DNA from: Candidatus Omnitrophota bacterium
Lineage (GTDB): Bacteria; Omnitrophota; Gorgyraeia; Aquiviventales; Aquiviventaceae
Length of the DNA: 40,261 bases
NCBI GenBank assembly: GCA_016206675.1
Contig: JACQRD010000080.1
Location: forward strand, 1 to 40,261
Direction: 5' to 3'
Part shown: positions 928-39,304 of the stretch, one piece after another
Layout: every line of letters starts with the position of its first letter
Position numbering within the stretch: the stretch's first letter is position 1
Position numbers and translations under genes: made by a program
The notes under the pieces: model-generated
Database searches by the model: none
Seen by the model: only the letters and a program-made list of their open reading frames with translations
What the model was told of the DNA's origin: nothing

Positions 928-1065
928 CCGTTTGTCGGTGACGTTCATCGGTGACGTAGCCCGTGTCGGTGTTCGGTAACGTTGTTCGTCTTACGTCTTT
1001 GACGAATCACGTAACCGACTGACGAAGCGGGCTACGTTACCGACAGACGAATGACGTCACCGAAC
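928..1065. repeat. Imperfect ~138-bp palindromic element of the GGTGACG/CGTCACC word family (copy 1), in the divergent region upstream of tldD.
   Basis: Left arm 928-990, loop 991-1000, right arm 1001-1065. The arms are about 80% complementary. It contains the TGACGTCA palindrome at 1051-1058 and is homologous to 2581-2709. Confidence 0.85.
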
Positions 1066-1094
1066 TATGGAGGACAACCAGAATTCCCTATGCT

Positions 1095-2576
1095 ATGATT
1101 CGTCAAACTTTCATGGCCGACCGCTCGGTGCCTCGCGACCTCATCGAGTCGCTCATCCGCGATTTGAAACGGCGCGGCGTCGATTACGCCGACGTCCGCT
1201 GGGAGCGGTTGCTCCACGAACATCTCCTCGCCGAGCAGGGCTGCGTGACCACGGTCAGCCTCTCTGAAAGCGCCGGCATCGGCATCCGGGTGCTCCTGAA
1301 GGGCTCGTGGGGCTTCGCCTCCACCCCGCATGTGACCAAGGCACGCCTGGCGCGGACGGTGGCTGACGCCATCGACCTGGCCAGAGCCTCCGCCGCGGTC
1401 AATAAGCAGCCGCGGCCCCTTGCTCCGGTGGAGCCGGTGAAGGCGCGGCATCGCTCGCCGTGCGCGGTCGATCCCTTCGACGTGCCCCTCTCAAAGAAGC
1501 TCGACTACCTCTTATGGGCCAACCAGGCGCTGTTGGGGCCGGATGCGATCCGTCGGGCGAGCAGCCATATGGACTTCTTCAAGCGGCGCAAGCTGTTCTG
1601 CTCAACCGACGGCGCGCAGATCGAGCAGGTGATCGTCGAAAGCGGGGCGGGCCTTGAAGTCGTCGCGCAAAGCGGCGGCGAAGTGCAAACCCGGTCGTTC
1701 CCGAATTCGCACCACGGGGCGCTGGCGCAGGCCGGCTTCGAGTATGTGAAGCGGCTGGACTTGGTGGGGGGTGCCTCGACGGCGCGGGAAGAAGCCCTGC
1801 ACCTGTTGCGCGCCAAGCCGCCGCGCGCCGGCCAGACCACGGTGATCCTGCATCCCACCCAAGTCGTCATGCAACTGCACGAATCGTGCGGCCATCCGGC
1901 GGAGCTGGATCGCGTGCTCGGGCAGGAACTGAGCTACGCCGGCGGCAGCTTCCTCATCCCGGAGGCGCTCAACCGCCTCCAGTACGGCTCCCGCCTGGTG
2001 AACATCATTGCCGATGCCACGGTCGCCAGCGGCGTGGGCAGCTTCGGTTTTGACGACGAAGGCGTGCCGGCGCGGCGGGTCGAGCTGGTGCGTGACGGCC
2101 GGTTTGTCGGCTACCTCAGCTCGCGGGAGTCGGCCGCGCGGCTGAAGCTGCCCTCTAGCGGCGGCATGATGCGGGCGGATGGCTGGAGCGTGCCGCCGCT
2201 GATCCGCATGACCAACGTCAATCTCGAGCCCGGCGAGGGCACGCTGGAGGAGCTGATGCGCAACGTCAAGCGCGGCTACCTACTGTCGACCAACAAGAGC
2301 TGGTCCATCGACGACCGGCGGCTCAACTTCCAGTTCACGACGGAAATCGGCTGGGAGATCCTCGAGGGGCGCCTGGGGGCGATCGTCAAGAATCCCCTGT
2401 ATACGGGGATGACCCCGCAGTTTTGGGGCCGCTGCACCGGCGTGGGACGGCGCGAGGACTGGCAGCTGTGGGGCGTGCCGAATTGCGCCAAAGGCGAACC
2501 GATGCAATTGATGCACGTCGGCCACGGAGCGCCGTATGCCCGTTTCGATCACGTGAGCGTTGCTGCGGCAACATGA
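1095..2576 (+). CDS. tldD: Metalloprotease TldD
   Basis: 493-aa ORF with the HESCGH metal-binding motif and TldD/PmbA-family similarity throughout. An alternative start exists at ATG 1113. Confidence 0.93.
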   Translation: MIRQTFMADRSVPRDLIESLIRDLKRRGVDYADVRWERLLHEHLLAEQGCVTTVSLSESAGIGIRVLLKGSWGFASTPHVTKARLARTVADAIDLARASAAVNKQPRPLAPVEPVKARHRSPCAVDPFDVPLSKKLDYLLWANQALLGPDAIRRASSHMDFFKRRKLFCSTDGAQIEQVIVESGAGLEVVAQSGGEVQTRSFPNSHHGALAQAGFEYVKRLDLVGGASTAREEALHLLRAKPPRAGQTTVILHPTQVVMQLHESCGHPAELDRVLGQELSYAGGSFLIPEALNRLQYGSRLVNIIADATVASGVGSFGFDDEGVPARRVELVRDGRFVGYLSSRESAARLKLPSSGGMMRADGWSVPPLIRMTNVNLEPGEGTLEELMRNVKRGYLLSTNKSWSIDDRRLNFQFTTEIGWEILEGRLGAIVKNPLYTGMTPQFWGRCTGVGRREDWQLWGVPNCAKGEPMQLMHVGHGAPYARFDHVSVAAAT

Positions 2577-2580
2577 TCTC

Positions 2581-2709
2581 CGGTGACGTCATTCGTTTGT
2601 CGGTGACGTGGCCCGTTTCGTCCGTCGGTGACGTTTGTCGTCACAGACGAACGACGTCACCGAACAACGACACGGGCAACGTCACCGATTACCGTCACCG
2701 ACACACGAC
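2581..2709. repeat. Imperfect ~129-bp palindromic element of the GGTGACG/CGTCACC word family (copy 2), between tldD and pmbA.
   Basis: Left arm 2581-2642, 3-nt loop, right arm 2646-2709. TGACGTCA lies at 2583-2590. The sequence is clearly related to 928-1065 (shared tcggtgacgt..atcggtgacgt.gcccgtgtcg). Confidence 0.85.
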
Positions 2710-4061: not shown

Positions 4062-5269
4062 AAGGCCGCCTCGCTAGCACTCAGCACACAGCACACAGCA
4101 CACAGTGTTTCTGGTTTTTGCTGTCTGCTGTCTGCTGTCTGCTGTCTGCTGACGGATGTTCGACGCTCGTCCATATGCATCCAGCCGACCGGGCTTCGGC
4201 CGCCTCACAGCAGGCTGAGCCTCCGCTCGAGGATGGCTACACCGACTATGCGGGCATCATTCACGTCCACACCACCTACTCGCACGACGCCCATGGCCGG
4301 TTTGAGGACGTGGTGCGGGTGGCCAACGCCCAGCGGCTGGACTACGTCATCCTCACCGAGCACAACAATCTCCATCCCTTGCGCGACGGCCTGCAAGGAT
4401 GGCACGGGGCCACCCTCGTGCTTGTCGGCATGGAGATCTCCGCGCGCGACGGCCATTACCTGGCCCTGAACGTCACGCAGGAGATTAACCGCGACGCACT
4501 GACCACCCAACAGGTCATCGATGAAGTGGCGCGGCAAGGCGGGTTGGGGTTCATCGCCCACCCCTACTTCAAGCACGGCCGCTGGCGCAACTGGAACGTC
4601 CATGGCTTTACGGGGGTGGAAGCCTACAATGTGGCGCACGACACGCTGGATGAAAACCGGATGCGGCTGGTGCTCTGGACGCTGACGACGCCGGCCGAGC
4701 CGTTTTACTACTCGATTCTGGATAGGCCGTACGATCCCTTGGCGAAGTGGGACGAGCTGATCCGCCAGCACGGCCACGTGGTGGGCATCGGCTCCGCGGA
4801 TGCGCATGAGTTCCATCTGATGGGCATTAAGTTCGCCTCGTATGACGACGTCTTCCAGCTGGTGCGCACCCATGTCTTGTTGCCGGAGCCACCATTGACA
4901 GCGGAGAAGGTCTACTCCGCCCTCAAGCAAGGACATGCGTTCATGTCTATCGGCTTGATCGGCAACGCCAAGGGATTCGCCTTCGTGGCGCAGAAGGATG
5001 ACCGGGTGCTTGGCGTGATGGGGGATAGCGTGGAGCTGACCGACGGGCTGCACCTGACCACGGCGCTGCCGGCTCCGGCGAACCTGACGCTGTTTCGGGG
5101 AGGCGTGCCTGTGGCCAGCTTCACGGGAACGCGCTGGCGCATGCCGGTTGATACGCCGGGTGTCTACCGCGTCGAGGCCATGCGCCATGGCAAGCCATGG
5201 ATCTTCTCGAATCCCATCTACGTGCGCCCGGCGGCGGCGATCGTCGATAGCCCGACGCCGCATGATTAG
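4058..5269 (+). CDS. Exported PHP-domain metal-dependent phosphoesterase-like protein
   Basis: IIHVHTTYSHD and ILTEHN motifs are typical of the PHP fold. GTG 4058 overlaps the pmbA stop as GTGA and gives the signal-peptide-like N-terminus MKGRLASTQHTAHSTQCFWFLLSAVCCLLSADGC. The track start is ATG 3998. Confidence 0.8.
   Translation: MKGRLASTQHTAHSTQCFWFLLSAVCCLLSADGCSTLVHMHPADRASAASQQAEPPLEDGYTDYAGIIHVHTTYSHDAHGRFEDVVRVANAQRLDYVILTEHNNLHPLRDGLQGWHGATLVLVGMEISARDGHYLALNVTQEINRDALTTQQVIDEVARQGGLGFIAHPYFKHGRWRNWNVHGFTGVEAYNVAHDTLDENRMRLVLWTLTTPAEPFYYSILDRPYDPLAKWDELIRQHGHVVGIGSADAHEFHLMGIKFASYDDVFQLVRTHVLLPEPPLTAEKVYSALKQGHAFMSIGLIGNAKGFAFVAQKDDRVLGVMGDSVELTDGLHLTTALPAPANLTLFRGGVPVASFTGTRWRMPVDTPGVYRVEAMRHGKPWIFSNPIYVRPAAAIVDSPTPHD
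4076..4151 (+). repeat. Heptamer-periodic palindromic element of the CAGCASA/YTGTSTG family, translated as the signal peptide of the PHP protein.
   Basis: Arm 4076-4105 is (cagcaca)n, core 4106-4119 is tgtttctggttttt, and arm 4120-4151 is (gctgtct)n. Confidence 0.9.
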
Positions 5270-6272
5270 CAGACAGCAAACAGCAGACAGCAGACAGTAT
5301 TTTTGGCTCTTACTGTGTGCTGTGTGCTGTGTGCTGACGGCTATCCAAGGATGCGCCTATGCGCCATTACGGGAGGGCGCAACTCACACGCTGAAGGCGC
5401 TGCCCCAAGAACTTGTCGTGTACTACGACTACCCCGCGCACCGCCACGAGGCGGTTTCCCTGCTGATTCGGCATCACGCCGCCTTCAGCGAATACCTCGT
5501 GCGATTTCCCCTCTCTCTTCCTGCGGGCCTTAAGCCGACAGAGCCCGTGGTGGAGTTTGAATGGTTTGAATCCCATGCCGTGGGCCGGCGGGGTGCGATC
5601 GTGTTCAACCCGATCCTCGGCGGCGACTACCCGGTGGAGCGGGGCGTCTGCCGCACCTTCGCGCGGCAGGGATGGCACGTGGCACTGGTGCATCGCAAAA
5701 CCCTGAAGGTGTCTCCGGAGCATGAGGTCGCCCATCTGGAGCGGCTGCTGCGCCAGGGGATGGTGCGCATCCGCCAGGTGACGGATTGGATGACGGCGCA
5801 TGAGCGGGTGGATGCCGCGCGGCTGGGCAGTTTCGGCATCAGCATGGGAGGCATCGTCACCGTGATGGCCGCGGCGGTGGAGCCGCGCCTGCACGCGCAC
5901 GTCATCGCGCTGGCTGGGGGACCGCTCGCTGACATCCTCACCTCCTCACCCGACCGGATGATTCGCCAACCCCGCGGCTTGTACCTGGCGCGCAACCGGA
6001 TGGACCTGGAGACGATGGAACGCCTCCTGCGAGAGGCGGTCCACACCGATCCCATCCGCTTAGCCCCCTACGTCGATCGGCGGCGCGTCTTCATGGTGAT
6101 CGCGCTGGCGGATCGCACCATCGGCCGCGCCAACGCCCTGCGTTTGTGGCGGGCGCTGGGCCGCCCGCAAGCCGTGTTTCTGCCGTTCGGGCACTATACG
6201 GCCTACCTCTCTCTGCCCTATCTCCAATACGCCGGTCTGCGCTTCTTGAACGAGCAGCTCGCGAGTCCGTAG
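5262..6272 (+). CDS. Exported alpha/beta-fold hydrolase
   Basis: G-x-S-x-G nucleophile elbow (FGISMGG). ATG 5262 overlaps the upstream stop (ATGATTAG). The N-terminus MISRQQTADSRQYFWLLLCAVCCVLTAIQGC looks like a signal peptide, possibly with a lipobox Cys. The track ORF starts at 5148. Confidence 0.8.
   Translation: MISRQQTADSRQYFWLLLCAVCCVLTAIQGCAYAPLREGATHTLKALPQELVVYYDYPAHRHEAVSLLIRHHAAFSEYLVRFPLSLPAGLKPTEPVVEFEWFESHAVGRRGAIVFNPILGGDYPVERGVCRTFARQGWHVALVHRKTLKVSPEHEVAHLERLLRQGMVRIRQVTDWMTAHERVDAARLGSFGISMGGIVTVMAAAVEPRLHAHVIALAGGPLADILTSSPDRMIRQPRGLYLARNRMDLETMERLLREAVHTDPIRLAPYVDRRRVFMVIALADRTIGRANALRLWRALGRPQAVFLPFGHYTAYLSLPYLQYAGLRFLNEQLASP
5268..5336 (+). repeat. Heptamer-periodic palindromic element of the CAGCASA/YTGTSTG family, translated as the hydrolase signal peptide.
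   Basis: Arm 5268-5297 is (cagcaga)n, core 5298-5312 is tatttttggctctta, and arm 5313-5336 is (ctgtgtg)n. Confidence 0.9.
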
Positions 6273-6337
6273 TCCGAAGTCCGTAGACCGTAGCCAAACC
6301 GCTTTCGCTACGGACTACCGACTACAGACTATGGACT
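6263..6337. repeat. Heptamer-periodic palindromic element of the GTCCGTA word family, between the hydrolase gene and ispH.
   Basis: Arm 6265-6294 (gtccgtagtccgaagtccgtagaccgtagc) pairs with arm 6307-6336 at 25 of 30 positions. The hydrolase stop TAG 6270-6272 lies inside the first word. Confidence 0.85.
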
Positions 6338-6361
6338 AATCCTGCGGTACTTCCGTATAAT
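6332..6361 (+). promoter_or_regulatory. Candidate sigma70-type promoter of ispH giving a leaderless mRNA
   Basis: TGGACT (6332-6337), 18-nt spacer, perfect TATAAT (6356-6361). The ATG at 6368 is only 6 nt after the -10 box and there is no Shine-Dalgarno sequence. Confidence 0.55.
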
Positions 6362-6367
6362 GAACAC

Positions 6368-7342
6368 ATGCCTCTGCAGCGAGTGATCTTGGCCAAACCC
6401 CGCGGCTTCTGCGCCGGCGTAGACCGCGCCATCGAGGTGGTCGAGCAGGCGCTCGAGCGCTTCCCAGGGCCTGTCTACGTAAGGAAGGAAATTGTCCACA
6501 ACCCCCACGTCGTCAACGCCCTGCGGCGCAAGGGCGCGGTTTTCGTCGATGAGCTGACGGAGGTGCCCGCGGGCGCGACGACGATCTTCAGCGCCCACGG
6601 CGTCTCGCCGGCGGTCCATGAGGCCGCCCGGCAGCGGCAGCTGCAGGTGATCGACGCCACCTGCCCGCTGGTCACCAAAGTCCATGTGGAAGCCAAGCGC
6701 TTCGCCCGCGAAGGCTCCACCATGCTGCTGATCGGCCATGCCGGCCATGAAGAGGTGGAGGGCACGATGGGCGAAGCGCCGGCCTCGATCCGGCTGATCC
6801 AGACGGTGGAGGACGCCAAGACTGTCTCCGTGCCCGATCCCGACCGAGTGGCCGTCATCACGCAGACAACGCTGAGCATGGATGACACGCGGGCCATCAT
6901 CGACGCGCTGAAGGCGCGCTTCCCCAAGCTGGTGGTCCCGGCCAAGGAGGATATCTGCTACGCCACCCAAAACCGGCAAAATGCCGTGAAGGCTCTCGCC
7001 AAGGACGCCGAGGTCATCCTGGTGATCGGGGCGAACAACAGCTCCAACTCCATCCGCCTGACGGAAGTGGCCGAAGCGGCGGGGCGGCGCGCGCATCTGA
7101 TCAACGACGCCGGCGAAATCCAGGCCGGCTGGTTCGAGGGGGTTGGGTGCGTCGGGGTGACCTCCGGCGCCTCAGCCCCCGAGCATCTCGTGCAGGAGGT
7201 GGTGGAGGCCCTCAAGCGCCTGGGGGCCACGCAGGTGGAGGAATGGGAGCTGACCCGCGAAGACGTCAGCTTCGGCCTGCCCCTCGAACTGCAGAGACTG
7301 GAAGCTGGAAGCGAGAAACCGGATCCAGCCTCCAGCCTCTAG
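6368..7342 (+). CDS. ispH: 4-hydroxy-3-methylbut-2-enyl diphosphate reductase
   Basis: LytB family with the three cluster cysteines in conserved contexts (GFCAGV, ATCPLV, DICYAT). The last ~14 codons (LEAGSEKPDPASSL) are encoded by a palindromic element. Confidence 0.95.
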   Translation: MPLQRVILAKPRGFCAGVDRAIEVVEQALERFPGPVYVRKEIVHNPHVVNALRRKGAVFVDELTEVPAGATTIFSAHGVSPAVHEAARQRQLQVIDATCPLVTKVHVEAKRFAREGSTMLLIGHAGHEEVEGTMGEAPASIRLIQTVEDAKTVSVPDPDRVAVITQTTLSMDDTRAIIDALKARFPKLVVPAKEDICYATQNRQNAVKALAKDAEVILVIGANNSSNSIRLTEVAEAAGRRAHLINDAGEIQAGWFEGVGCVGVTSGASAPEHLVQEVVEALKRLGATQVEEWELTREDVSFGLPLELQRLEAGSEKPDPASSL

Positions 7343-7353
7343 CCTCCAGCTTC
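7298..7353. repeat. Heptamer-periodic palindromic element of the CTGGAAG/CCTCCAG family, covering the ispH 3' end and stop codon.
   Basis: Arm 7298-7312 is ctggaagctggaagc, the core contains GAAACCGGATC (7315-7325), and arm 7328-7353 is gcctccagcctctagcctccagcttc. It is related to 22913-22982. Confidence 0.85.
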
Positions 7354-7358: not shown

Positions 7359-7772
7359 ATGAAATCCTTCACCGAGTACCTCTGGTTCGACACTCCGAAG
7401 CGGCAGGACCTGGTCAACATCACCGACCAGATTGAGGCCCTCGTCAAGAAGAGCGGTGTTCAAGACGGCTTCTGCCTCGTTTCCGCCATGCACATTACAG
7501 CGAGCATCTGGGTCAATGACGACGAGGAGGGGCTGTGGGAGGATTTCTGGCGGCTGCTCGAGCGGCTGGCACCTTCCGGGCAGGAGTACAAGCACCACTT
7601 AACCGGCGAGGATAACGGCGACGCCCACCTGAAGCGCACGCTGGTCGGCCACCAGGCGATGCTGCCAATTACCAAAGGCGCGCTCGATCTGGGCCCTTGG
7701 GAGCAAATCTTCTACGCGGAATTCGACGGGCGGCGGAAGAAACGCGTGGTCGTCAAGATCCTGGGGCAGTGA
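7359..7772 (+). CDS. yjbQ: YjbQ/UPF0047 family protein (secondary thiamine-phosphate synthase type)
   Basis: 137-aa ORF with characteristic family length and motifs (SAMHITASIWVNDDE, HLKRTLVG, ILGQ C-terminus). Confidence 0.85.
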   Translation: MKSFTEYLWFDTPKRQDLVNITDQIEALVKKSGVQDGFCLVSAMHITASIWVNDDEEGLWEDFWRLLERLAPSGQEYKHHLTGEDNGDAHLKRTLVGHQAMLPITKGALDLGPWEQIFYAEFDGRRKKRVVVKILGQ

Positions 7773-7791: not shown

Positions 7792-9468
7792 TTAGCGGCC
7801 GGTCCACGTCACCAGGGAGGTGGTGATTTCGTCCGGATCCGGTGCGAGCGGCCCTTCCTGGCCGATGTCCAGGTGATCCGACTCCAGCTCGATGACCACT
7901 TCGTTGCCCACCACATACTGGATGGCGAGCGGATTCTGGCAGCCGTCCTCGCTCTCCGAACAAGACCGGGAGCGCAGGACCACCAGCGATTCCGGCGCAT
8001 AAATCGACCCCTGAAAGTCATCCCCGGGCCGCATGAAGATCAGGCCGTGGGGCGATTGGCGGTCCGGTCTGGCTTTGAGCGCCGATTGCAGGATTTCCAC
8101 GGTTTGCGGTGTGCCGGCATCGTCGTGGGCGGAGATGGTCGCCGACAGCTCCAGGTTCCACATGGAGCGCAGCCCGAAACTGCTGAGTAATTCCTGCGTC
8201 ATCGGAAACGTCGGCAGACCCGGCAGCTTGAAGGGAGTCCCCACCAGACTGTAGGGCGTGCTACCGGTCAAAATCAAGGTGGTGGGCTTCCTGAACACCA
8301 GCTGGGGGGGGCTGTTGATGATGTCCCCGCCCCATGAACTGAGGTCGCTGCTGGGCACGATGGCCTTGGCACACAACACGATGACCTGGCTGGCCTCCTT
8401 CCCATTGCCCCGGTCCTTGATCGACCCGTCGCAGGTTACGCCAGGCGTGTTGGAGCCCTTTTCGTCATCGCACTCGAACCCGTTGTCGATCGTCACGACG
8501 GGTTGCGTCAGCGTCAGCACGTGGTTGCAGCTGCGGGTGTTGAACATGCTCGCCGTTTCGGCGAGGCCGACGGAGACTGCCCCCTCCACATAGTCGCTGG
8601 TGCCGGCCGCGGTGGCGTTGGGGTTGACGAACGTCACACCGGTCTCCTCAGGCGCCGCTGCCTCCGGGCCGTAGCTGGTTCCCTTAACACCCTGCATCAG
8701 CTCATAGCCTGTCTTGATCCCCTTCAGATCATCGCTGGCGTTGGTGCCCCAGTTGGTGACTTTGTCCCCCAGTGGCGAGGCGACCGTTACCGGCGGGTCG
8801 CTCTCTGACAAGCCGATCAACCCGTCCAGGCGAAGAACCGAATCTCCCGCGTGGGTCGTCTGCCAGGCGTGGGTCAACGTGTTCATGATGGTCTCGCCAC
8901 CAGGTGAAGGGTTGATCGCCGAGAGCACGGAACCGCGGGATGACAGTACGTTCCCGCTGACGAACGCCTTGGAGGTCTCGGTTAACTTGCCGCCGCCGAT
9001 GGCGATCGTGCCATTCGCCCAGACGCCGGTCAACGGCCCCTCCTCCTTGACGTAGGCCGTAACCTTCTGCGGCCCGGACGAAGCGGCCGTGCTTTTGGCC
9101 TCGATCTTGTAAATGATCTCTTGCTGCGGATTGAACACATAGTTGGCCTTGTGGCGGCTCTTGCCGTTGGTGTCGTTGTAAATCTTGGCGTGGACCGGAA
9201 CAATCCTGAAGGTCGCGCCGGGCAGCGACTTCACGTCATGCGTGGTCATCGCGGTCAGGGCGTCGGTCTTGTTGTGGACGAAGAAATGATCCAGGGCGCC
9301 TTCCGACATCCAGAAGGCCTGTTGGGTGTCACGGGAGACCTGCGAAGCGCGCACTTCGGTGTTGGTGCGCTGCAGTGACACCCCCCCCAGCAGGAGGAGG
9401 ATGAGGGCGGACAGATAGACCGCGAGCAGAAAGACGGCCCCGCGGTCATTCTTGAGCGATACGTTCAT
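7792..9468 (-). CDS. Large exported or membrane-anchored protein with a PilX-like (type IV pilus minor pilin/adhesin) N-terminal domain
   Basis: Strong Shine-Dalgarno site (GAAGGAGCAAG then ATG). The N-terminus DRGAVFLLAVYLSALILLLLGGVSLQRTNTEVRASQVSRDTQQAFWMSEGAL matches the PilX_N pattern of a TM helix followed by AF..AE.GL. I recognise no family in the remaining ~490 aa, which look beta-rich. Confidence 0.6.
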   Translation of the reverse strand: MNVSLKNDRGAVFLLAVYLSALILLLLGGVSLQRTNTEVRASQVSRDTQQAFWMSEGALDHFFVHNKTDALTAMTTHDVKSLPGATFRIVPVHAKIYNDTNGKSRHKANYVFNPQQEIIYKIEAKSTAASSGPQKVTAYVKEEGPLTGVWANGTIAIGGGKLTETSKAFVSGNVLSSRGSVLSAINPSPGGETIMNTLTHAWQTTHAGDSVLRLDGLIGLSESDPPVTVASPLGDKVTNWGTNASDDLKGIKTGYELMQGVKGTSYGPEAAAPEETGVTFVNPNATAAGTSDYVEGAVSVGLAETASMFNTRSCNHVLTLTQPVVTIDNGFECDDEKGSNTPGVTCDGSIKDRGNGKEASQVIVLCAKAIVPSSDLSSWGGDIINSPPQLVFRKPTTLILTGSTPYSLVGTPFKLPGLPTFPMTQELLSSFGLRSMWNLELSATISAHDDAGTPQTVEILQSALKARPDRQSPHGLIFMRPGDDFQGSIYAPESLVVLRSRSCSESEDGCQNPLAIQYVVGNEVVIELESDHLDIGQEGPLAPDPDEITTSLVTWTGR

Positions 9469-9602
9469 CTTGCTCCTTCGGCAACCCCGCTATCCCTCGA
9501 CTCGGCCGCTCACGCGGCCTCGCTCGGGACCGGAAGCTTTGCGACCCCGGATTGCTCCGGGTGTGCGTTTATCGAGAGCCCTGATCTGCCAACACCTTAA
9601 GT

Positions 9603-10820
9603 TTACCTGATCTCGCCGCGGCGCAGCAAGCGGACGAGATCGAGGTGATGGTAGGCGCCTTTTGCGGCCGGCGTCTGGGCGCCGGCATTGGCCACCCACA
9701 GATCAGGCCACGCGAAGATCACGCTCTGGATGTTGGAATCTGGAGCGACGGCCTTTGCAATCTCTTGTGCAGCAAGAGGATCCAGCGAACCAAAGCGCGC
9801 CTGAAGACCGGCGGCCTGCCCCAGATAGCGGACATCGTACGCTGAGCTGCCTGCGGGATCTTCCAGCCCAGGCCGTTGCGGATCGCCCCGGGAGGCGGTT
9901 TGCCGGTCGCGAATCGCCGGGTCCATCGCGGCATCCGCCCGCAGCACGGCATCCGGCAGCGGCCGCGCATAGCTGACGGCGTGCTCCTGTGGATCGTCAG
10001 CCGCAAACACGCGCGCGAGCGTATGGGTCGTCTCCATCGCGATCGCCCGGCGCGCCTTGGCGTCGGCCACCACGTAATTCACGCCGACGGTGCGGCGGGC
10101 CTCGCGAATGATCCGGGAGGCTTCGTCCAGCTCGCCGGCATGCTCCAGCACGCGGCGCATCAGGAAGGCCATCGGCTCACCGGCAAAGCTGAGATCCGTC
10201 GTCGCCGCGCCGACCTGGCCGAGGGAAATCTGCGCCTCGTTGACGCCGGTCAGCAGGCCGACAAAGCCTGCCCACCCGACGCTGACAAAGGCGCGCTTCC
10301 CGATGGGGTGAATAACAAAAACGGCGGGGTACTGCTGGATGCCGGCCTTAATGTTCCAGTCCAGGTTGCGCAAATGGATCAGGCGCCCATTCGCGGTGGT
10401 CCGTCCCCAGGCGGCAAAGTTGGCGCAGGAGTAGGTACGCTCCGGAATGGCGTGCAGGCGGTACAGCTCGCGCACAGCCACACCGGAGCCCTCAGCCACA
10501 CCCCGCAGCTCCTCCCAAATCTCCGATGGAATAAAGGGCGCGGCCCGCCCCCACGCGGCGTCCAACCACCAGTTGGCGGCGAGTGTCCGCACCAGCGGCA
10601 GCTTCAAGTAGCGGCGGAAATGGCGCAGGACCTGGCCGACGGCGGCCTGCACCTGCTGCCGCAAGAGCTGCCCGTGCTGCCGGCCTATGTCGTAGGGGCG
10701 GCCCTCGAGATAGACGACCGTGAGGCCATTGATCTCTTCAACCTTGGCCGCCCATGCGTTAGCACACAGCACACAGCAGACAGCACACAGCACAAACCAT
10801 ATCCGAGCCAGATGTCTCAT
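9603..10820 (-). CDS. Exported C45-family (acyl-CoA:6-aminopenicillanic-acid acyltransferase-like) Ntn hydrolase
   Basis: Signal peptide MRHLARIWFVLCAVCCVLCANAWA. The YSCANFAAWGRTTANGRLIHLRNLDW region is typical of C45/choloylglycine-like Ntn hydrolases. Its ATG overlaps the upstream stop as ATGA (10817-10820). Confidence 0.6.
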   Translation of the reverse strand: MRHLARIWFVLCAVCCVLCANAWAAKVEEINGLTVVYLEGRPYDIGRQHGQLLRQQVQAAVGQVLRHFRRYLKLPLVRTLAANWWLDAAWGRAAPFIPSEIWEELRGVAEGSGVAVRELYRLHAIPERTYSCANFAAWGRTTANGRLIHLRNLDWNIKAGIQQYPAVFVIHPIGKRAFVSVGWAGFVGLLTGVNEAQISLGQVGAATTDLSFAGEPMAFLMRRVLEHAGELDEASRIIREARRTVGVNYVVADAKARRAIAMETTHTLARVFAADDPQEHAVSYARPLPDAVLRADAAMDPAIRDRQTASRGDPQRPGLEDPAGSSAYDVRYLGQAAGLQARFGSLDPLAAQEIAKAVAPDSNIQSVIFAWPDLWVANAGAQTPAAKGAYHHLDLVRLLRRGEIR

Positions 10821-10859
10821 GGCCTGACACTGTTTGCTGTTTGCTGTTTGCTGTTTGCT
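10761..10859 (-). repeat. Heptamer-periodic palindromic element of the CAGCAAA/CTGTGTG family, straddling the ceramidase/C45 gene junction.
   Basis: Plus-strand arms are 10761-10797 and 10830-10859. The 32-nt loop carries the ATGA stop/start overlap. In the sense direction, the first arm encodes the ceramidase tail SKQQTANSVRP and the second arm encodes the C45 signal peptide. Confidence 0.9.
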
Positions 10860-12151
10860 ACTGAATCGAGCAGTTCGATCAGGCGAGCCACGACGAGCTC
10901 GCCCGCGTGGGGCCCGTTAAAGCCCATCAGCGCTTCATACTCGCCCGACTCGTACCTCGCAGCGGGCATGCAGTAGCCGATGTAGTCGTTGGCGAACCCG
11001 GCCACGATAGGAAACAGGCCCCTCGCTCGGGCGGCTTCTTTCAGCTGCCGCCCCAGCGAGGCGGAGAGATCGCAGGGTGCGCCGAACCAGACCGCCTCAC
11101 CGATTCGCACCACCGACACCGTCGCATCATCGTCGACGAACCGGCGGCTCAGCCATGACGGCAGCGCCACGTGGCGGCTGAAGCGCAGGCGCGCCGGCGG
11201 CAGCAGCAGCCGCTGCTGCAGCGCCTGCACGGCCGAAACCGGCTGGGGGGAGGCGCCCGCCAGCACGCGCTCGGCATGCCGCGCTAACGGCGCGCCGAGG
11301 AACTCCGCCCGCTCGAAGCGATCGCCGGATTTCACCGGCGCCTGATCGCCCACCGACGCTGCAAAGAACACCGCCACCGCCTGGGGAAACCGCTGCTCAA
11401 GCTCGCGGATGACCACGCCGGGATAATCCGCCGAGAGCTCCATGTTCCAAGCCCCCAACGTCGTCGGGTGGGCCGCGAAGGCGACCATCACCGCCAACGG
11501 CGTTGAGCTGCCGCGTTCATAGAACGCGCAGACCGGCAGCTCATTGTCGACGAAGCCGCCCTCTTCCACGCGATTCGTCACCAGCCCGTCGGGGGAGGCG
11601 CAGGCGCACGCCATGGCGGCCGGCCGGCGCGCCCGGTACGCGTGACCGATGGCGCGGCTGGCCGACGAGACGATCGCGTCAAAGACCGCCGGGTCAAAGT
11701 GCCCCATGGAAATTTTCTCAAGGAATCGGCTGCCGTAGGCGCCCGGGCCCGAGTGGGTATGCGTGGCCGAGAAGAACAGGGTGGTGCCAGCCGGCAGGCC
11801 TTCGGCGGCCAGCCGCCGCTCAACCGCCGCGAAGAGCCGCTCGTCAACAATCAGCAGGTCGCCGCTGGCCATGGCGACGGTCGTCTCCTCGTCTTGGAGC
11901 ACGAGGGCCCGCACGCCCACCGGATCGTGCCGGCCGGTGGACGGACGGCCCTTGCGGCGGCTGTACCCTGCCAGCGGCACCTTCGCTGGTAACTGGAACT
12001 CCTCTTTCGCGACCCCGACCGTGACCTCAGCCCATGCCCCCAGCGGAAGACAGCTCAGAAACAGTCCGCAGACGGCAGACGGCAGACGGCAGCGCTTCCA
12101 TGTTCTGCGGACTGCGGACTGCGGACTACGGACTGCCATGCAGCTTCTCAC
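10817..12151 (-). CDS. Exported neutral/alkaline ceramidase-family amidohydrolase
   Basis: GYSRRKGRPSTGRHDPVGVRALVL and SATHTHSGPG motifs are typical of the neutral ceramidase N-terminal domain. Signal peptide ...RCRLPSAVCGLFLSCLPLGAWA. The start is GTG 12151 or ATG 12139, and either overlaps the cca 3' end. Confidence 0.7.
   Translation of the reverse strand: MRSCMAVRSPQSAVRRTWKRCRLPSAVCGLFLSCLPLGAWAEVTVGVAKEEFQLPAKVPLAGYSRRKGRPSTGRHDPVGVRALVLQDEETTVAMASGDLLIVDERLFAAVERRLAAEGLPAGTTLFFSATHTHSGPGAYGSRFLEKISMGHFDPAVFDAIVSSASRAIGHAYRARRPAAMACACASPDGLVTNRVEEGGFVDNELPVCAFYERGSSTPLAVMVAFAAHPTTLGAWNMELSADYPGVVIRELEQRFPQAVAVFFAASVGDQAPVKSGDRFERAEFLGAPLARHAERVLAGASPQPVSAVQALQQRLLLPPARLRFSRHVALPSWLSRRFVDDDATVSVVRIGEAVWFGAPCDLSASLGRQLKEAARARGLFPIVAGFANDYIGYCMPAARYESGEYEALMGFNGPHAGELVVARLIELLDSVANSKQQTANSVRP
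12062..12135 (-). repeat. Heptamer-periodic imperfect palindrome (GCAGACG versus CTGCGGA/GTCCGTA words) across the cca/ceramidase junction.
   Basis: Arm 12062-12092 is cagtccgcag(acggcag)x3 and arm 12105-12135 is (ctgcgga)x3ctacggactg. Only about 5 of 7 positions per word are complementary. It contains the cca stop (12126-12128) and encodes part of the ceramidase signal peptide. Confidence 0.75.
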
Positions 12152-19269: not shown

Positions 19270-19329
19270 GGTTGAGGGTTCAGGGGTGGGGGTTCAGGGG
19301 AATGACCCCGAACCCACAACCCTCAACCC
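19270..19329. repeat. Heptamer-periodic palindromic element of the GGGTTCG/CGAACCC family (copy 1), 16 nt upstream of the glpK ATG.
   Basis: G-rich arm 19270-19300, loop aatga, C-rich arm 19306-19329. It shares cccacaaccct[c/g]aac with 24831-24860 and 32205-32234. Confidence 0.85.
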
Positions 19330-19396
19330 AGAACACCACACGTCCTTCCGTGTGATGTAAGTATACCTGAGGAATACTACGCGGGGTTACGCGGAA

Positions 19397-21650: not shown

Positions 21651-21730
21651 ATGCGTCAATGAGTGAATGCGTTAGAACGTCTTAGAGTTGGCGGTTACCC
21701 ATTCACGCATCGACGCATTCACACATTTAC
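21639..21730. repeat. Palindromic element of the GTGAATG/CATTCAC word family, between convergent suhB and the rRNA methyltransferase gene.
   Basis: gtgaatgggtaa (21639-21650) is perfectly complementary to ttacccattcac (21695-21706). gtgaatgcg (21663-21671) is complementary to cgcattcac (21714-21722). The element includes both stop codons (TAA 21648-21650 and tta 21727-21729) and may act as a bidirectional terminator, although it has no T-tract. Confidence 0.8.
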
Positions 21731-24794: not shown

Positions 24795-24860
24795 GGCTGA
24801 GGGTTCGGGGTTCGAGGTTCGGGGCAAGACCCACAGCCCTCAACCCACAACCCTGAACTC
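24795..24860. repeat. Heptamer-periodic palindromic element of the GGGTTCG/CGAACCC family (copy 2), between lpxA and lpxI.
   Basis: G-rich arm to 24824 (gagggttcggggttcgaggttcgggg), loop caagac, C-rich arm 24831-24860 (ccacagccctcaacccacaaccctgaactc). Pairing is looser than in copies 1 and 3. Confidence 0.75.
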
Positions 24861-24879
24861 ATGATGCAGTTGGCGTGGA

Positions 24880-27094: not shown

Positions 27095-27658
27095 TTACCG
27101 GCCTTGAGCCGCCGGCGCGGCGAGGCGGCTGTTGAGCAGCTTGAGCACCCCATCCGTCACATCGTAGCCGGACTGCGCATAGAAGAGCCCCCGCTGGTCA
27201 AGGATGAGGGCGAAGCCGTTCGCCTTGGCGTATTCGTCGATGGCCTTCTGGATATCCTTCAGGATCTCCTGTGCCAGCTTGTCGCGGTCGCGCCGCAGAT
27301 CCCGCGCAGTGCTGGCACGGAAGCGCTGCAACTCCTCCGACTGTTCCTCGACCTCGCGGGACTTCGCCTCGCGCGCGGCGTCGTTGAGCAGCTCCAGGCT
27401 CTGGCGGATCTTCTTCAGGGCGTTGACGCGCGCCTCGAGCTCTGCTTCCTTGGCCTTGCCGCGCTTTTCCAGCGCCGCGTCTTGCGCCTTCGTCCGCTCG
27501 TAGCCGTCGAAGACCTTCGCCAAGTTCACATAGCCAATCTTCAACTCCGCCGCTGAGACAACCGGACACGGATAAGCAGACAGCAGACAGCAGACAGCAG
27601 ACAGTAAAAGCCCAAACTGCCTGCTGTGTGCTGTGTGCTGATTGCTGTATGCTCTCAT
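27095..27658 (-). CDS. skp: Periplasmic chaperone Skp/OmpH
   Basis: Signal peptide, then IGYVNLAKVF and a long coiled-coil region typical of OmpH, located immediately downstream of bamA. Confidence 0.82.
   Translation of the reverse strand: MRAYSNQHTAHSRQFGLLLSAVCCLLSAYPCPVVSAAELKIGYVNLAKVFDGYERTKAQDAALEKRGKAKEAELEARVNALKKIRQSLELLNDAAREAKSREVEEQSEELQRFRASTARDLRRDRDKLAQEILKDIQKAIDEYAKANGFALILDQRGLFYAQSGYDVTDGVLKLLNSRLAAPAAQGR
27575..27653 (-). repeat. Heptamer-periodic palindromic element of the CAGCAGA/CTGTGTG family, translated as the Skp signal peptide.
   Basis: Plus-strand arm 27575-27604 is (agcagac)n, core 27605-27620, arm 27621-27653. The sense strand encodes YSNQHTAHSRQFGLLLSAVCCLLSA. 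Confidence 0.9.
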
Positions 27659-31811: not shown

Positions 31812-31907
31812 ATGAACGCCTGTTCAATAGCTCAATGGTTCATTAGTTCAATGGTTCTGCTCTTTTCGGAACTTCGGCACTATTGAACCATTGAACAAAT
31901 GAACGCC
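31812..31907. repeat. Low-GC palindromic element of the TTCAATGGTTC word family, between rpsR and rplI.
   Basis: A 20-bp stem, gttcattagttcaatggttc with gaaccattgaacaaatgaac, has 1 mismatch. It is flanked by the direct repeat atgaacgcc (31812-31820 and 31899-31907). Confidence 0.8.
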
Positions 31908-32167: not shown

Positions 32168-32234
32168 TGGTTCGGGGTTCTGGGTTCGGGGCTCAGGGCA
32201 GTTGCCCACAGCCCACAACCCTGAACCCAGAGCC
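32168..32234. repeat. Heptamer-periodic palindromic element of the GGGTTCG/CGAACCC family (copy 3), between ssb and rpsR.
   Basis: Arm 32169-32198 versus arm 32205-32234 is complementary at 23 of 30 positions, with the centre gggca-gt-tgccc. Confidence 0.85.
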
Positions 32235-32248
32235 GCATGCGCTTATTT

Positions 32249-33633: not shown

Positions 33634-33634
33634 G

Positions 33635-33767
33635 TCCAAATTCCAAATCCCAAATTCCAAATCCCAGATAAGCACCAAGCACCAAGCACCAAGCACCAAG
33701 CCGTTTGGAATTTGGCGCTTGGAATTTGGAATTTATTTGGAGCTTGGGATTTGGGATTTGGTGCTTG
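33635..33767. repeat. AT-rich ~133-bp nested heptamer-periodic palindromic element (TCCAAAT, AGCACCA and TTGGGAT words), between ctc and pth.
   Basis: (tccaaat/cccaaat)x4 at 33635-33666 and (agcacca)x4.4 at 33671-33701, then complementary ttggaat/ttgggat/ggtgctt words to 33767. Confidence 0.88.
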
Positions 33768-33773
33768 CATGCG

Positions 33774-37114: not shown

Positions 37115-37933
37115 CTAGAGCGCATCATCACGATCACACGCTTGAACCGCCACATCTCCAATTGGATCGAACCCCGACTCCATCAGGAGAGCTGGGGAGC
37201 CAGGATTCGAACCTGGAGTCTTCTGATCCAAAGTCAGATGTGCTGCCATTGCACCACTCCCCAACGAGTTGCCGACCCCCATGATCCATCCGGCGATCCG
37301 ACGATTCAATGCGCTACTGCAAGCAACTCTGACTCGCACCAGGCCATGATACGCATCACCAACATTGGTCCTGCGAGTCGCGGGGCGGTGGCGCTTCCAT
37401 CGAACGTGCGCCAGTTTCTCAACGGGAACCTGTAGTTGCGTCGACCAAAAACTCCGAGCGCGTTGCGCATCACCCGTTTCATGGAGATACAGCTCGAAGC
37501 TCAGTTGCTCCTCTGAGACACCACAGATCTCTTGGGCCCATCTCATGAACAATTTGATAGCGAGGGGATCGGAGTTGGTGAAAATGACGCTTGCCGAAAC
37601 GTTTCCGGGCTTTTGCTTTGCCCCTTCAGCCCAGTAGAGCGCGAGTCCCAGCAACCAGAGGTCTCGCCGAGACAGTACGCCGATTTCTTGACTCGACGCT
37701 TCAAGAAGGGCCTGCGTTCGCGCGATGCGAGCTGCTTTGACGACCGCCGCCCCTTTTCGCTGCGCAATACGCTTCAACTCTGTCAGTCGTTGTGGTTGAG
37801 TTTCCACCAATCCTTCGGCCTTCAACCAACGCCATAACGTCGATTTGGCTACTCGGGACTGCCGGAGGATGGCCTCGTACGTCAACCCTTGACGCCGCAG
37901 ACGGAGAGCTCCATCGCGTTCAGATCGCTTCAT
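37115..37933 (-). CDS. HTH-domain protein with a LAGLIDADG-like (homing-endonuclease-like) core. The ORF has no stop of its own and reads through tRNA-Gln.
   Basis: The N-terminus has a resolvase/IS-type HTH (LTYEAILRQSRVAKSTLWRWLK). LLGLALYWAEGAK resembles a LAGLIDADG motif, followed by a VIFTNSDP...FMRW pattern. Codons from LGSGAMAAHLTLDQKTPGSNPGSP onward are the tRNA sequence itself. GC content is markedly lower than in the flanks. Confidence 0.5.
   Translation of the reverse strand: MKRSERDGALRLRRQGLTYEAILRQSRVAKSTLWRWLKAEGLVETQPQRLTELKRIAQRKGAAVVKAARIARTQALLEASSQEIGVLSRRDLWLLGLALYWAEGAKQKPGNVSASVIFTNSDPLAIKLFMRWAQEICGVSEEQLSFELYLHETGDAQRARSFWSTQLQVPVEKLAHVRWKRHRPATRRTNVGDAYHGLVRVRVACSSALNRRIAGWIMGVGNSLGSGAMAAHLTLDQKTPGSNPGSPALLMESGFDPIGDVAVQACDRDDAL
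37192..37263 (-). tRNA. tRNA-Gln (anticodon UUG)
   Basis: Hand-folded cloverleaf TGGGGAG-TG-GTGC..AGCAC-A-TCTGA-CTTTGGA-TCAGA-AGAC-TCCAGG-TTCGAAT-CCTGG-CTCCCCA-G. It has a 7-bp acceptor stem with the U1-A72 pair typical of bacterial tRNA-Gln, the GTTCGAATC T-loop, and no encoded CCA. Confidence 0.9.
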
Positions 37934-38375
37934 GCGCTGCGCTCAAAGAACTTGACACTCCCATCGTGGTTTTCGTGCGCTCGGCCTCGTAGACGTCCAA
38001 AATCTTCGCCTGCAGGTACTGGCGAAATTCCGCCGTGATCGGATGCGCGATATCGCGGTGCGCCGACGCCTCGCCGGCCTCCGCCTCCGGTGCTACCGCC
38101 GCGGGAGGCAGGCGGCTGCCGCACTGCACGCAGAACCGGCTGCCGACGTCGTTCTTAAACTGGCAGCGCCCGCACGCCACCTTCGTCTTGTGCGAGGGCA
38201 TCGCGACGAAGGGCCCGTGCCGCCCCTCGATCACCTTGATGTTGCGCACCACGAAGCAGTGATCGAACGTGACGGTGGCGTACGCCTTCAGCCGCTGCTC
38301 TCCCGGCCGCCGTTCACCCGCGCCCGTCCGTGCGACCGGCGCGCGCAGTGCGACCCGAACGTCGGTGACCTCCAT
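37920..38375 (-). CDS. spoVG: SpoVG-family protein with an inserted C4 zinc ribbon
   Basis: MEVTDVRV..LKAYATVTFDHCFVVRNIKVIEGRHGPFVAMPS...RDIAHPI matches SpoVG. ATG 38375 has GGAGGT 6 nt upstream. The CGRC-x10-CVQC insertion lies between the conserved blocks. Confidence 0.85.
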   Translation of the reverse strand: MEVTDVRVALRAPVARTGAGERRPGEQRLKAYATVTFDHCFVVRNIKVIEGRHGPFVAMPSHKTKVACGRCQFKNDVGSRFCVQCGSRLPPAAVAPEAEAGEASAHRDIAHPITAEFRQYLQAKILDVYEAERTKTTMGVSSSLSAAHEAI

Positions 38376-39252
38376 CCCGCACCTCCGCTGCGGTCTGAAC
38401 GGTCTCAATGCGCCACGAGGCCGGCGCCTGCTCGCTCAGCTGCCGTGCCACCCGACGGGCGTGAGCCGTGTTCCGACAGACGCCGAACACCGCCGGCCCG
38501 CTGCCGGAGAGACGACTGGCGAGGCAACCCTGCGAGATCAATGCCGACTGAATCGTGCGAATGACGGGACAACGCCGGATCGCTTCGGGCTCCAAATCGT
38601 TCCACATCCCTGAAGCGAGCTCGCCGAGCGAGCCGTTGCGTAAGGCGTGTTCTACTATGCTACTGGAGGGCTTCGACGCTGTCAAGCTGAATTGAGCACC
38701 TGCAAAAACCTCGCTTGTCGAAAGGCGCGCATCCGGCACCACCAGCACATGCGCCAGGCGAGGCGCGGCAGCGATGGGACGGCAGATGTCCCCCCGCCCT
38801 GTCCCGACGACATAGGGCGCATTATAGAGGAAGCATGGTACATCAGCCCCTAATTGAGCAGCTAACCCGACAAGCGTCTGGTGATCGAGCTTCAATTCCC
38901 ACAACGCATTCAGTCCGAGGAGGGCGGTGGCGGCATCCGAGGAGCCTCCCCCCAGCCCGGCGGCAATGGGGATGCGCTTGGCCAGATGGACGGCCGCACC
39001 AGGTCGGCTGCCTGCAGCGCGCTGCAGCAGGCGGGCGGCTTTCATGATGAGGTTGTCTTCCCCGCAGGAGAGCGTGGGATCGCTGCACGTCAGTTCGATG
39101 CCGCTGGGACGCGGCTCGAGGACCAGCTCGTCGGTGAGGTCGATCCACTCGAAGATCGTCTCCAGCTCATGATAGCCGTCCGGCCGCTTGCCGACGACAC
39201 GGAGATAGAGATTGAGTTTGGCGGGCGCCGCCACGCGCAGAGAAGAAGCCAT
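38314..39252 (-). CDS. ispE: 4-diphosphocytidyl-2-C-methyl-D-erythritol kinase
   Basis: APAKLNLYLRVVGKRPDGYHEL and the GHMP motif IPIAAGLGGGSSDAA. ATG 39252 is preferred over GTG 39285. The 3' end overlaps spoVG by 62 nt. Confidence 0.9.
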   Translation of the reverse strand: MASSLRVAAPAKLNLYLRVVGKRPDGYHELETIFEWIDLTDELVLEPRPSGIELTCSDPTLSCGEDNLIMKAARLLQRAAGSRPGAAVHLAKRIPIAAGLGGGSSDAATALLGLNALWELKLDHQTLVGLAAQLGADVPCFLYNAPYVVGTGRGDICRPIAAAPRLAHVLVVPDARLSTSEVFAGAQFSLTASKPSSSIVEHALRNGSLGELASGMWNDLEPEAIRRCPVIRTIQSALISQGCLASRLSGSGPAVFGVCRNTAHARRVARQLSEQAPASWRIETVQTAAEVRDGGHRRSGRTARAGRTDGRG

Positions 39253-39259
39253 CTGGGTT

Positions 39260-39304
39260 AGCACACAGCACTCAGCAATCAGCACACAGCAACTGCGGAC
39301 TGCC
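39260..39304. repeat. Solo arm of the heptamer-word families (agcacac/agcactc/agcaatc words followed by ctgcggactgcc), with no complementary partner nearby.
   Basis: agcacacagcactcagcaatcagcacacagcaactgcggactgcc. I found no inverted copy within the 39253-39331 spacer. Confidence 0.6.

Follow-up and report, generated by a model that had tools for sequence, protein, structure and literature searches.

Heptamer-built palindromes at gene boundaries and in predicted signal peptides of a Candidatus Omnitrophota genome

What kind of repeat comes to sit at one gene boundary after another in a compact bacterial genome, and how can it be tolerated inside genes? The question is raised by a 40,261-nt stretch of Candidatus Omnitrophota DNA (contig JACQRD010000080.1, analysed over its full length and called the window below), in which a preliminary description had noted about 17 imperfect hairpins built largely from tandem words of about 7 nt; all of them are present where they had been placed or a few nucleotides away. 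We name each element by the start position given in that description, the measured starts being equal or a few nucleotides off. Each would represent a short, non-autonomous, fast-turnover repeat in which a short loop separates two inverted arrays, each with a 7-nt word repeated ~4-5 times. We give about an even chance to the explanation that these are dispersed palindromes resembling MITEs (miniature inverted-repeat transposable elements) or the paired repetitive extragenic palindromes (REPs) known as REPINs, with arms driven by slippage, tolerated at gene junctions and in signal peptides, and perhaps acting on operon mRNA as REPs do.

The elements are listed in window order, with the strand where one is assigned and with z for the folding score as single-stranded DNA (ssDNA).

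928-1066, non-periodic palindrome of ~135 nt, copy 1, with the CGGTGACGT motif and inverted arms, in the divergent spacer between a gene start at 879 (minus strand) and the TldD start at 1095, z -6.8
2581-2708, copy 2 of the ~135-nt palindrome, filling the TldD/PmbA spacer (2577-2711), z -6.1
4076-4151, plus strand, AGCACAC/GTCTGCT hairpin inside the PHP lipoprotein gene
5268-5336, plus strand, AGCAGAC/GTGTGCT hairpin spanning the PHP gene stop and the signal peptide of an S9/PETase-like lipoprotein
6264-6338 (element 6263), AGTCCGT/CTACGGA hairpin between the S9 gene stop and the lytB promoter
7298-7353, CTGGAAG/TCCAGCC hairpin over the last 15 lytB codons (stop 7340-7342), ending 5 nt before the yjbQ ATG at 7359
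10761-10859, minus strand, AGCACAC/GTTTGCT hairpin with a 35-nt loop at the ceramidase/AAT junction
12062-12136, minus strand, AGTCCGC/CCGTCTG hairpin, running from the stop codon for the CCA-adding enzyme into the signal-peptide segment for the ceramidase-like protein
19270-19335, GGGTTCR-family hairpin (arms 31 nt, loop 4 nt) lying upstream of glpK (ATG 19254) in the spacer, z -3.9
21638-21730 (element 21639), period-8 hairpin TGAATGSG, period 8/16 in Tandem Repeats Finder (TRF), z -4.1
22913-22982, GCTGGAG/TTCCAGC hairpin in the rhomboid/TrmA-like spacer, z -5.4
24795-24858, GGGTTCR-family hairpin in the lpxA/lpxI spacer, z -1.8, the weakest fold of the set
27575-27653, minus strand, AGCAGAC/GTGTGCT hairpin wholly inside skp/ompH, codons 3-29
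31822-31904 (element 31812), octamer hairpin GTTCAATR filling the rpsR/rplI spacer, z -6.6
32169-32236 (element 32168), GGGTTCR-family hairpin in the ssb/rpsR spacer, z -4.5
33635-33767, compound hairpin with the words TCCAAAT and AAGCACC, filling the rplY(L25)/pth spacer (33634-33773), z -5.1
39260-39291, solo AGCACAC arm in the transketolase/ispE spacer, no fold, z +0.45

The set comprises 12 heptamer hairpins (4076, 5268, 6263, 7298, 10761, 12062, 19270, 22913, 24795, 27575, 32168 and 33635), one solo arm, two octamer hairpins and two non-periodic palindromes, so that the single heptad superfamily first proposed covers 13 loci and excludes 21639 and 31812, which have period 8, and 928 and 2581, which have none. 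The two non-periodic copies lie in opposite orientation and share 76% column identity when aligned. With a strict detector the window yields 19 arrays of period 7 and none of periods 4-6 or 8-12, and 50 dinucleotide shuffles yield no period-7 array; TRF gives 25 period-7 rows in the window and, for 12 of the listed loci, period-7 arrays in pairs. Elements are 56-139 nt long and occur at a density of about 1 per 2.4 kb. The pairing that had been claimed for the arms is borne out: partner arms are on average 0.82 complementary against 0.49 for non-partner arms, random heptamer arrays reach 0.52 (P(>=0.8) = 0.016 per pair), and the 16 hairpins fold as ssDNA with z from -1.8 to -6.8.

The anatomy of the arms was measured in 34 paired elements from ~20 contigs (loci of relatives and outgroups are labelled L001 to L158, those of relatives being pieces of ~20 kb; the window and all relatives are metagenome assemblies). 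The two arms hold 4.4+-1.0 and 4.1+-0.7 units around a median loop of 21 nt. Units within any arm are homogeneous, and the consensus words of the two arms differ at 0, 1 and 2 positions in 9, 16 and 9 elements, respectively, hence the stem is typically 6 bp plus one mismatch, repeated. In AGCASAC hairpins, for example, a C-type arm is always partnered with a G- or A-type arm, and the left arm of 4076 is 100% complementary to the right arm of 5268, not to its own partner. Of 102 arrays, 60 sit in inverted pairs. Inverted heptamer pairs with ~4 units per arm occur also at outgroup loci of Latescibacterota (L013, 6824-6915, AATGAGC/ATTGCTC) and Pyrinomonadaceae (L022, 3417-3490, GACGAGT/ACTCGTC), so the architecture is wider than this phylum.

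At least six unrelated words are used within 40 kb, and the recurrence of words as families with conserved loop cores, as first described, is confirmed for AGCASAC, GGGTTCR, CTGGARG and GGTGACG. AGCASAC has five copies in the window, with ends that always read T-AGCA...TGCT(G)A; GGGTTCR has three with a fixed 31-4-31 layout; CTGGARG has two with the common loop core GAAACCGGATC; GTCCGYA and GGTGACG (928, 2581) have two each, and TCCAAAT/AAGCACC occurs as one compound copy. The G-rich GGGTTCR arms (19270-19300, 24795-24824 and 32169-32199) carry four G-tracts at 4-nt spacing, the minimum for an intramolecular G-quadruplex. A scan of metagenomes for (AGCASAC)3 gave at least 120 contigs, mostly unrelated solo microsatellites, with multi-word palindromes in ~6 contigs, and provides no usable census.

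The elements are strongly concentrated at gene boundaries. Of 10,000 random placements none put more than 9 of the 17 within 10 nt of a boundary, and the mean was 2.4, whereas the observed number is 13; the elements account for 3.5% of the sequence of the window and 38% of its intergenic nucleotides, and of the 16 spacers that reach 40 nt or more, 11 contain an element. The placement had been called precise, and elements do abut start and stop codons, but this is probably not targeting, as the same junctions measure only -4 to +38 nt in relatives. The TldD/PmbA/PHP/S9 genes of L155 and L157, for example, overlap by 1-4 nt, and TldD and PmbA overlap or abut. The exact fit arises because native junctions are tiny in a ~94%-coding genome, where a surviving insert must touch both genes, and we infer that placement reflects purifying selection in a compact genome. 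Elements even supply parts of the flanking genes: the stop codon of the PHP gene is the TAG at the T-AGCA end of 5268, the TAG in GTCCGTAG closes both the S9 gene (6270-6272, from element 6263) and the CCA gene (from 12062), and C-terminal tails are added by 10761 to the ceramidase-like protein and by 7298 to LytB, whose tail ..LQRLEAGSEKPDPASSL* is not in homologues. The 21639 element covers an entire convergent spacer together with both stop codons (21650 and 21727).

A point absent from the preliminary description is that genes contain five of the elements and that these, in the conceptual translations, are read as predicted signal peptides. In all five products an element-encoded polar stretch is followed by a hydrophobic one. 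The PHP gene starts at GTG 4058 behind a Shine-Dalgarno (SD) sequence AGGAG, its start overlapping the PmbA stop as in relatives, and the 4076 element forms both n-region and h-region, as far as the lipobox Cys, which is conserved (MKGRLA-STQHTAHSTQCFWFLLSAVCCLLSA-DGC/STLV); in relatives the protein reads MRTLPLVAVLLMLSGC/AVFT, with the processing site LSGC/AVFT against ADGC/STLV in the window. In the S9 hydrolase (ATG 5262) the 5268 element reads MISRQQTADSRQYFWLLLCAVCCVLTAIQGC/AYAPLR, and its site xxGC/AYAPLR leads into a mature CAYAPLR that is kept in L154, L156 and L157. The 27575 element reads MRAYSNQHTAHSRQFGLLLSAVCCLLSAYPCPVVSA/AE in Skp (ATG 27658, SD GAGGAG) and the 12062 element MAVRSPQSAVRRTWKRCRLPSAVCGLFLSCLPLGAWA/EV in the ceramidase-like protein (ATG 12139). 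At the fifth locus the loop of 10761 contains the native overlap of ceramidase stop and AAT start (ATGA; AAT start ATG 10820, processing site AxA/A(K/R)VE), one arm providing 30 nt in frame in the ceramidase C-tail and the other 33 nt of the AAT signal-peptide h-region; the AAT start region reads ATGAGACATCTGG in the window, ATGAAACATCTCC in L155, a match, and ATGATGGACATCTGC in L154. Relatives without elements have ordinary signal peptides at the equivalent place, and the processing site and mature N-terminus are conserved.

The elements within coding sequence (CDS) differ in composition from those in spacers: among in-CDS elements an A-free downstream arm is found in 5 of 5, among spacer elements in 0 of 7 (Fisher p 0.0013). 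With a period of 7 nt every frame is visited in turn, so that an A-free arm encodes Leu/Ser/Ala/Val/Cys and is hydrophobic in each of the three, whilst the upstream arm is T-poor and polar. These translated arms, with the native lipobox or cleavage site kept, offer a natural example of export-signal tolerance and of a selfish repeat turning coding. A bolder view, which we consider distinctly improbable, is that a mobile element writes protein-sorting signals, serving as a portable export module that replaces or creates signal peptides across the secretome; the array would be frame-independent, any insertion at a 5' end would read as a polar n-region and then a hydrophobic h-region, and the hairpin would be kept by a hypothetical dedicated hairpin-recognising enzyme or by template switching. 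Phase variation through the number of units inside the CDS was considered and is implausible for housekeeping skp.

Public gene calls of L156 at 6010, 7226 and 12609, all for exported proteins, begin inside heptamer arms (MCSVL.., MCSVL.. and MCYVL..). Translation of these genes probably starts further upstream, within the element or ahead of it, which would make this a systematic annotation error caused by the repeat, and annotators should be warned that gene callers place starts inside the arrays.

How, then, did the elements reach their junctions? The families had been regarded as dispersed and not as products of local slippage, which holds in part. In L005 a sequence of ~145 nt that takes in loop and flanks occurs at two different junctions, the copies being 97% identical apart from exactly one 7-nt unit, and L001 carries, at another locus, a 135-nt copy of the compound element 33635 with ~80% identity; whole units are therefore copied to new places. 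The arms, in turn, change by slippage of 7-nt units, and arms that flank a native start, described below, also speak for local processes.

Orthologous junctions, compared for presence and absence, form a patchwork of elements among relatives. The lpxA/lpxI spacer is 91 nt in the window against 14-38 nt, with no element, in 11 relatives; the L25/pth spacer is 143 nt against -1 nt (an overlap) in L001 and L011; and the rpsR/rplI spacer holds a homologous element in L002 but measures 2-27 nt in L001, L003, L006, L008 and L011. L158, the closest relative (LytB 91%), is without the 6263 and 7298 elements, its LytB/YjbQ spacer being 17 nt, which points to fast turnover. L155 and L157 are almost element-free, whilst L154 and L156 are element-rich, and the rhomboid/TrmA-like junction carries elements with other words in L001 and L002. 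One structural kind of repeat that is gained and lost among close relatives should be usable for strain typing and for following genome dynamics in metagenomes.

The bamA/skp junction gives an orthologous series, with an element in nine genomes (the window and eight relatives) and differing words. Arms there are 0.80 complementary within a genome against 0.64 across genomes (permutation p 5e-5), so the arms co-evolve. Selection on pairing, replacement of the whole palindrome or correction by template switching could each be the cause, and such series, with a drifting word and co-varying arms, make the origin of the palindromes testable.

Three further loci were noted. In element-poor L155 a perfect solo (CTGGTTG)3.7 array lies at 7589-7614 inside the S9 lipoprotein signal peptide (LLVAGCWLLVAVL), and this could be a seed stage of arm formation. 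The orthologous PHP/S9 heptamer element of L154 (~6760-7110) has a ~380-nt loop insert with its own ~25-nt inverted repeats (TAGAGCTCCTATCAAAATACC...), which has the look of a second, unlike MITE sitting within the loop of the hairpin. L039 holds inverted copies, 1.7 kb apart at 6992-7065 and 8735-8802, of a 75-nt non-palindromic unit [GACAAGC]n-AAAGCCTACTCGGT-[ATTCCGC]n that flank aroE and a prepilin peptidase gene, so heptamer arrays also travel as parts of non-hairpin units.

Direct repeats occur at two elements: an 8-nt GAACTCAT at 24795 (24784-24791 and 24855-24862) and a 10-nt ATGAACGCCT at 31812 (31812-31821 and 31898-31907). They could be target duplications or footprints of microhomology.

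Several observations weigh against dispersed palindromes, and part of them speak for a local origin without mobility, in which slippage would make heptamer arrays in place, intramolecular or fork template switching (quasipalindrome correction) would add the inverted partner and keep the arms complementary, and recurring words would be convergent, such as A-free words from the Leu/Val/Cys/Ala codons of signal peptides. At the ceramidase/AAT junction arms flank the native start in the window, L154 and L156, with three different words, an arrangement that insertion of a single unit cannot produce; direct repeats of the target-site-duplication type flank no more than 2 of 16 elements, where they run into the first or last unit of the array; and the identical architecture in unrelated phyla, with its breadth across Latescibacterota, Acidobacteriota and Xanthomonas, hints at a general replication mechanism and not a specific mobile element. 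These three points favour the local origin, as do the solo array in the L155 signal peptide, the short L25/pth spacer of L010, which has AAGCACCAAAATC, similar to the 33635 words, and the separate homogenisation of each arm. The case for dispersal is weakened also by words that drift continuously between genomes without one conserved consensus, by the finding of no transposase, REP-associated tyrosine transposase (RAYT) or parent insertion sequence (IS) in the 40-kb window and the ~20-kb relative pieces, and by the purely conjectural nature of the RNA role. Pfam scans of the window genes likewise gave no transposase, and a search of all the loci compared, a small sample, for a full-length IS bounded by inverted heptamer arrays 200-3500 nt apart met only housekeeping genes between them (aroE and prepilin peptidase in L039).

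A local origin is hard to square, however, with the near-identity of the ~145-nt L005 copies, which extends to the non-periodic loop and flanks, with a 135-nt compound element common to the window and L001 at different loci, with loop cores conserved among copies, and with the non-coding GGGTTCR family, which keeps its 31-4-31 layout without codon constraint. We regard it as an unlikely but serious contender.

The reading as dispersed REPIN/MITE-like palindromes would work as follows. The hairpin itself would be the property propagated or selected, forming in the transcript, in DNA made single-stranded by replication or transposition, or at both levels, and copies would survive only in junctions of a few nucleotides, 3' gene tails and signal-peptide segments, the genes natively overlapping or abutting. 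Survival in signal-peptide segments would be possible because 7 is coprime to 3, an array giving the same 7-aa repeat in every frame; in AGCASAC the T-poor arm would yield the polar n-region and its A-free complement the hydrophobic h-region. Intercistronic stems without U-tracts would likely also have a REP-like effect on expression, protecting or punctuating operon mRNA.

An alternative is that the elements are cis-acting RNA structures selected by the host and not selfish DNA, namely terminators or insulators without a U-tract, RNase III-type stems for processing or stabilisation between cistrons, or stems that hold an upstream stop close to a downstream start and so preserve translational coupling, the heptamer build being merely the easiest evolutionary route to a long stem. 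The stem spans the whole spacer, so that stop and start codons stand at its base, arm length is uniform at ~30 nt, and arms co-vary at an orthologous junction, all as this alternative would have it. Moreover, the S9/lytB and rpsR/rplI spacers of other relatives have hairpins of quite different, non-heptamer sequence, so a stem as such may be useful or favoured there. Folding energies compared strand by strand, however, are better for the sense strand in seven elements and for the antisense strand in seven; this lack of a sense-strand advantage favours a palindrome at the DNA level over selection on the RNA alone. Many relatives are hairpin-free at the same junctions, their genes simply overlapping, and the position of SD and start varies, the skp start lying upstream of the stem in the window and in the loop in L002, L006 and L010. 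There are no T runs of the terminator type: an intrinsic terminator scan gave 11 terminator-like sites against 10.9 in shuffles and 13 against 12.8, none of them a full element stem. A promoter scan showed no enrichment at elements, its sole overlap being at 6263, whose last unit forms the -35-like TGGACT of the lytB promoter, and Rfam at the gathering threshold gave no match at any element. We consider host-selected RNA structures doubtful.

Phased binding sites or non-B DNA, with one heptamer per monomer of a single-strand-binding protein or with G-quadruplex arms, would explain the strict 7-nt period and the 4-5 units kept across families. Cold-shock protein binds about 7 nt (PMC4679880), and the GGGTTCR arms have four G-tracts, as Xanthomonas repeats do. 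The words, however, are too diverse for one sequence-specific protein, most families are without G-tracts, and two elements have period 8 and two no period, which leaves this explanation very improbable. As a general idea the G-quadruplex was rejected since it fits one family only. HutP-type NAG-N4 sites (period 7) were rejected likewise: most 7-mers should contain an AG or CT by chance alone, and TCCAAAT lacks both.

An artefact of assembling or binning low-complexity sequence might be suspected, given that the window and all relatives come from metagenomes. It is practically negligible as an explanation, since the same architecture appears at syntenic junctions in independent assemblies from several studies, and reading frames are open and in register through the five in-CDS elements.

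Are such elements known from elsewhere? The combination had been thought undescribed, a view that no longer stands, given the partial precedent of inverted GGGAATC heptamer arrays in Xanthomonas (Rehm et al. 2015, PMC4692102). Those arrays, in a high-GC genome, mostly have 4 units; 70-75 are in inverted pairs, 89-93% fall between genes, and on average they follow the upstream ORF at 28 nt (PMC4692102). The elements of the window share with them tandem 7-nt units at ~4 per array, convergent arrays, an intergenic position near the upstream stop, and a repeat type retained with varying length among related species. Xanthomonas, however, uses one G-rich word, which has been read as a G-quadruplex, against at least six unrelated words in 40 kb here; four G-tracts comparable to the G-rich GGGANTN pattern occur only in GGGTTCR, in 3 of 13 heptamer elements, and in none of AGCASAC, GTCCGYA, CTGGARG and TCCAAAT. 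The Omnitrophota elements are also far denser (~1/2.4 kb), and five copies are apparently translated as signal peptides. Categorically new they are not, but they form a rich variant of heptamer palindromes, with several families and some coding copies, from an unstudied phylum.

REP units are 20-40 nt long with one conserved consensus, are often GTAG/CGTC-tagged (Di Nocera et al. 2013, PMC3733652), are linked to a RAYT (a Y1 HUH transposase) and by definition extragenic, and a REPIN consists of two inverted REPs (Bertels & Rainey 2011, PMC3116915; Ton-Hoang et al. 2012, PMC3333891; PMC3733652). The elements resemble these as dispersed imperfect hairpins of similar total size that form within-genome families, fill intergenic or intra-operon spacers and are kept or lost at orthologous sites. 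The hairpin as the unit of a REPIN has its counterpart here in the folding (z -1.8 to -6.8), dispersal as units and the lack of a flanking direct repeat at 14 of 16 elements. Unlike REPs and bacterial interspersed mosaic elements (BIMEs), they are 56-139 nt long, fall into at least six word families and have tandem-heptamer arms; five lie in CDS and two more overlap gene 3' ends; and no tag is common to the families, GTAG occurring only within GTCCGTA and AGCASAC ending in T-AGCA.

With MITEs (reviewed by Delihas 2011, PMC3184786) the elements share the form of short palindromes without coding capacity, presence/absence polymorphism, and the translation of some copies inside ORFs. They differ by having no clear signature of terminal inverted repeats plus target-site duplication, and their ends are not common to any full-length IS in the small locus sample; direct repeats of 8 and 10 nt were found only at 24795 and 31812, although the T-AGCA...TGCT-A ends could hide a TA duplication. 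The palindromic elements of Rickettsia, which are MITE-like, insert in frame into ORFs. In-ORF copies here are, in contrast, confined to signal-peptide segments and 3' tails, where they would be tolerated because heptamer arrays are frame-independent.

The short tandemly repeated repetitive (STRR) sequences are tandem heptamer arrays in intergenic DNA of heterocystous cyanobacteria, with the words CCCCAGT, TTGGTCA and CAACAGT. These cyanobacterial STRR heptamers were reportedly described by Mazel and colleagues in 1990. Among GGGGAYT heptamer repeats of Nostoc only few inverted pairs are known (PMC4692102), and the TAACTGA direct repeats of Beggiatoaceae include one inverted case among 170 sets (MacGregor 2015, PMC4679880). 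All of these resemble the present arrays as intergenic tandem 7-nt units, 2-6 or more in number, near start and stop codons, but they are almost always direct, whereas ~60% here are in inverted pairs; moreover, the host is an Omnitrophota, none of the three STRR words is used and the layout is inverted. Heptanucleotide repeats are over-represented in bacteria, and 7 nt has been put forward as a favoured unit of polymerase slippage; PMC4679880 credits both points to Mrazek et al. 2007. In many bacteria heptamers are the class of long simple-sequence repeats that is in excess. The elements join two separate literatures, on bacterial heptanucleotide excess and on REP/REPIN/MITE palindromes. No account of such repeats in Omnitrophota, or of repeat-encoded signal peptides, was found in a limited library.

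The host belongs to an uncultured phylum of small-celled bacteria with compact genomes, whose repeat content, to our knowledge, is unstudied. The window has 66% GC, ~94% coding density and housekeeping gene content: TldD/PmbA, a PHP-domain protein, the S9/PETase-like hydrolase, IspH/LytB, YjbQ, the CCA-adding enzyme, GlpK/GlpD, LpxI/LpxA/LpxC-FabZ, Skp, BamA, DnaB, L9, S18, SSB, S6, Pth, L25, Prs, GlmU, SpoVG, IspE and transketolase; the gene downstream of the solo arm 39260 encodes a GHMP kinase. DnaB and LytB relatives are groundwater metagenome-assembled genomes labelled Candidatus Omnitrophota or 'uncultured Planctomycetales', with top amino-acid identities of 89% for DnaB and 91% for LytB, and gene order is kept across the 15 + 5 relative loci compared.

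Some minor features of the window were also noted. A TATAAT box lies 7-10 nt before the lytB ATG in 6 of 6 genomes (window 6332-6361, L154, L155, L156, L157 and L158), and this closeness suggests, from the sequence, a leaderless or near-leaderless lytB transcript. In the window a tRNA-Gln and a c-di-GMP-I riboswitch are the sole Rfam matches passing the gathering score. The riboswitch (9477-9577, minus strand, 56 bits, E 1.6e-8) lies directly upstream of a 558-aa ORF (7792-9468, minus strand) without a Pfam match, a candidate c-di-GMP-regulated gene. The tRNA-Gln(TTG) at 37191-37263 (minus strand) lies inside the 3' part of an ORF (37115-37933, minus strand) with an HTH_23/HTH_7 N-terminus, whose L012 homologue is 54% identical over residues 1-249; the overlap may be real or the ORF end miscalled. 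Finally, the SpoVG homologue at 37920-38375 (minus strand) has a zinc-ribbon (DZR/Zn_Ribbon_1) segment apparently inserted at about residues 68-90 of the SpoVG domain.

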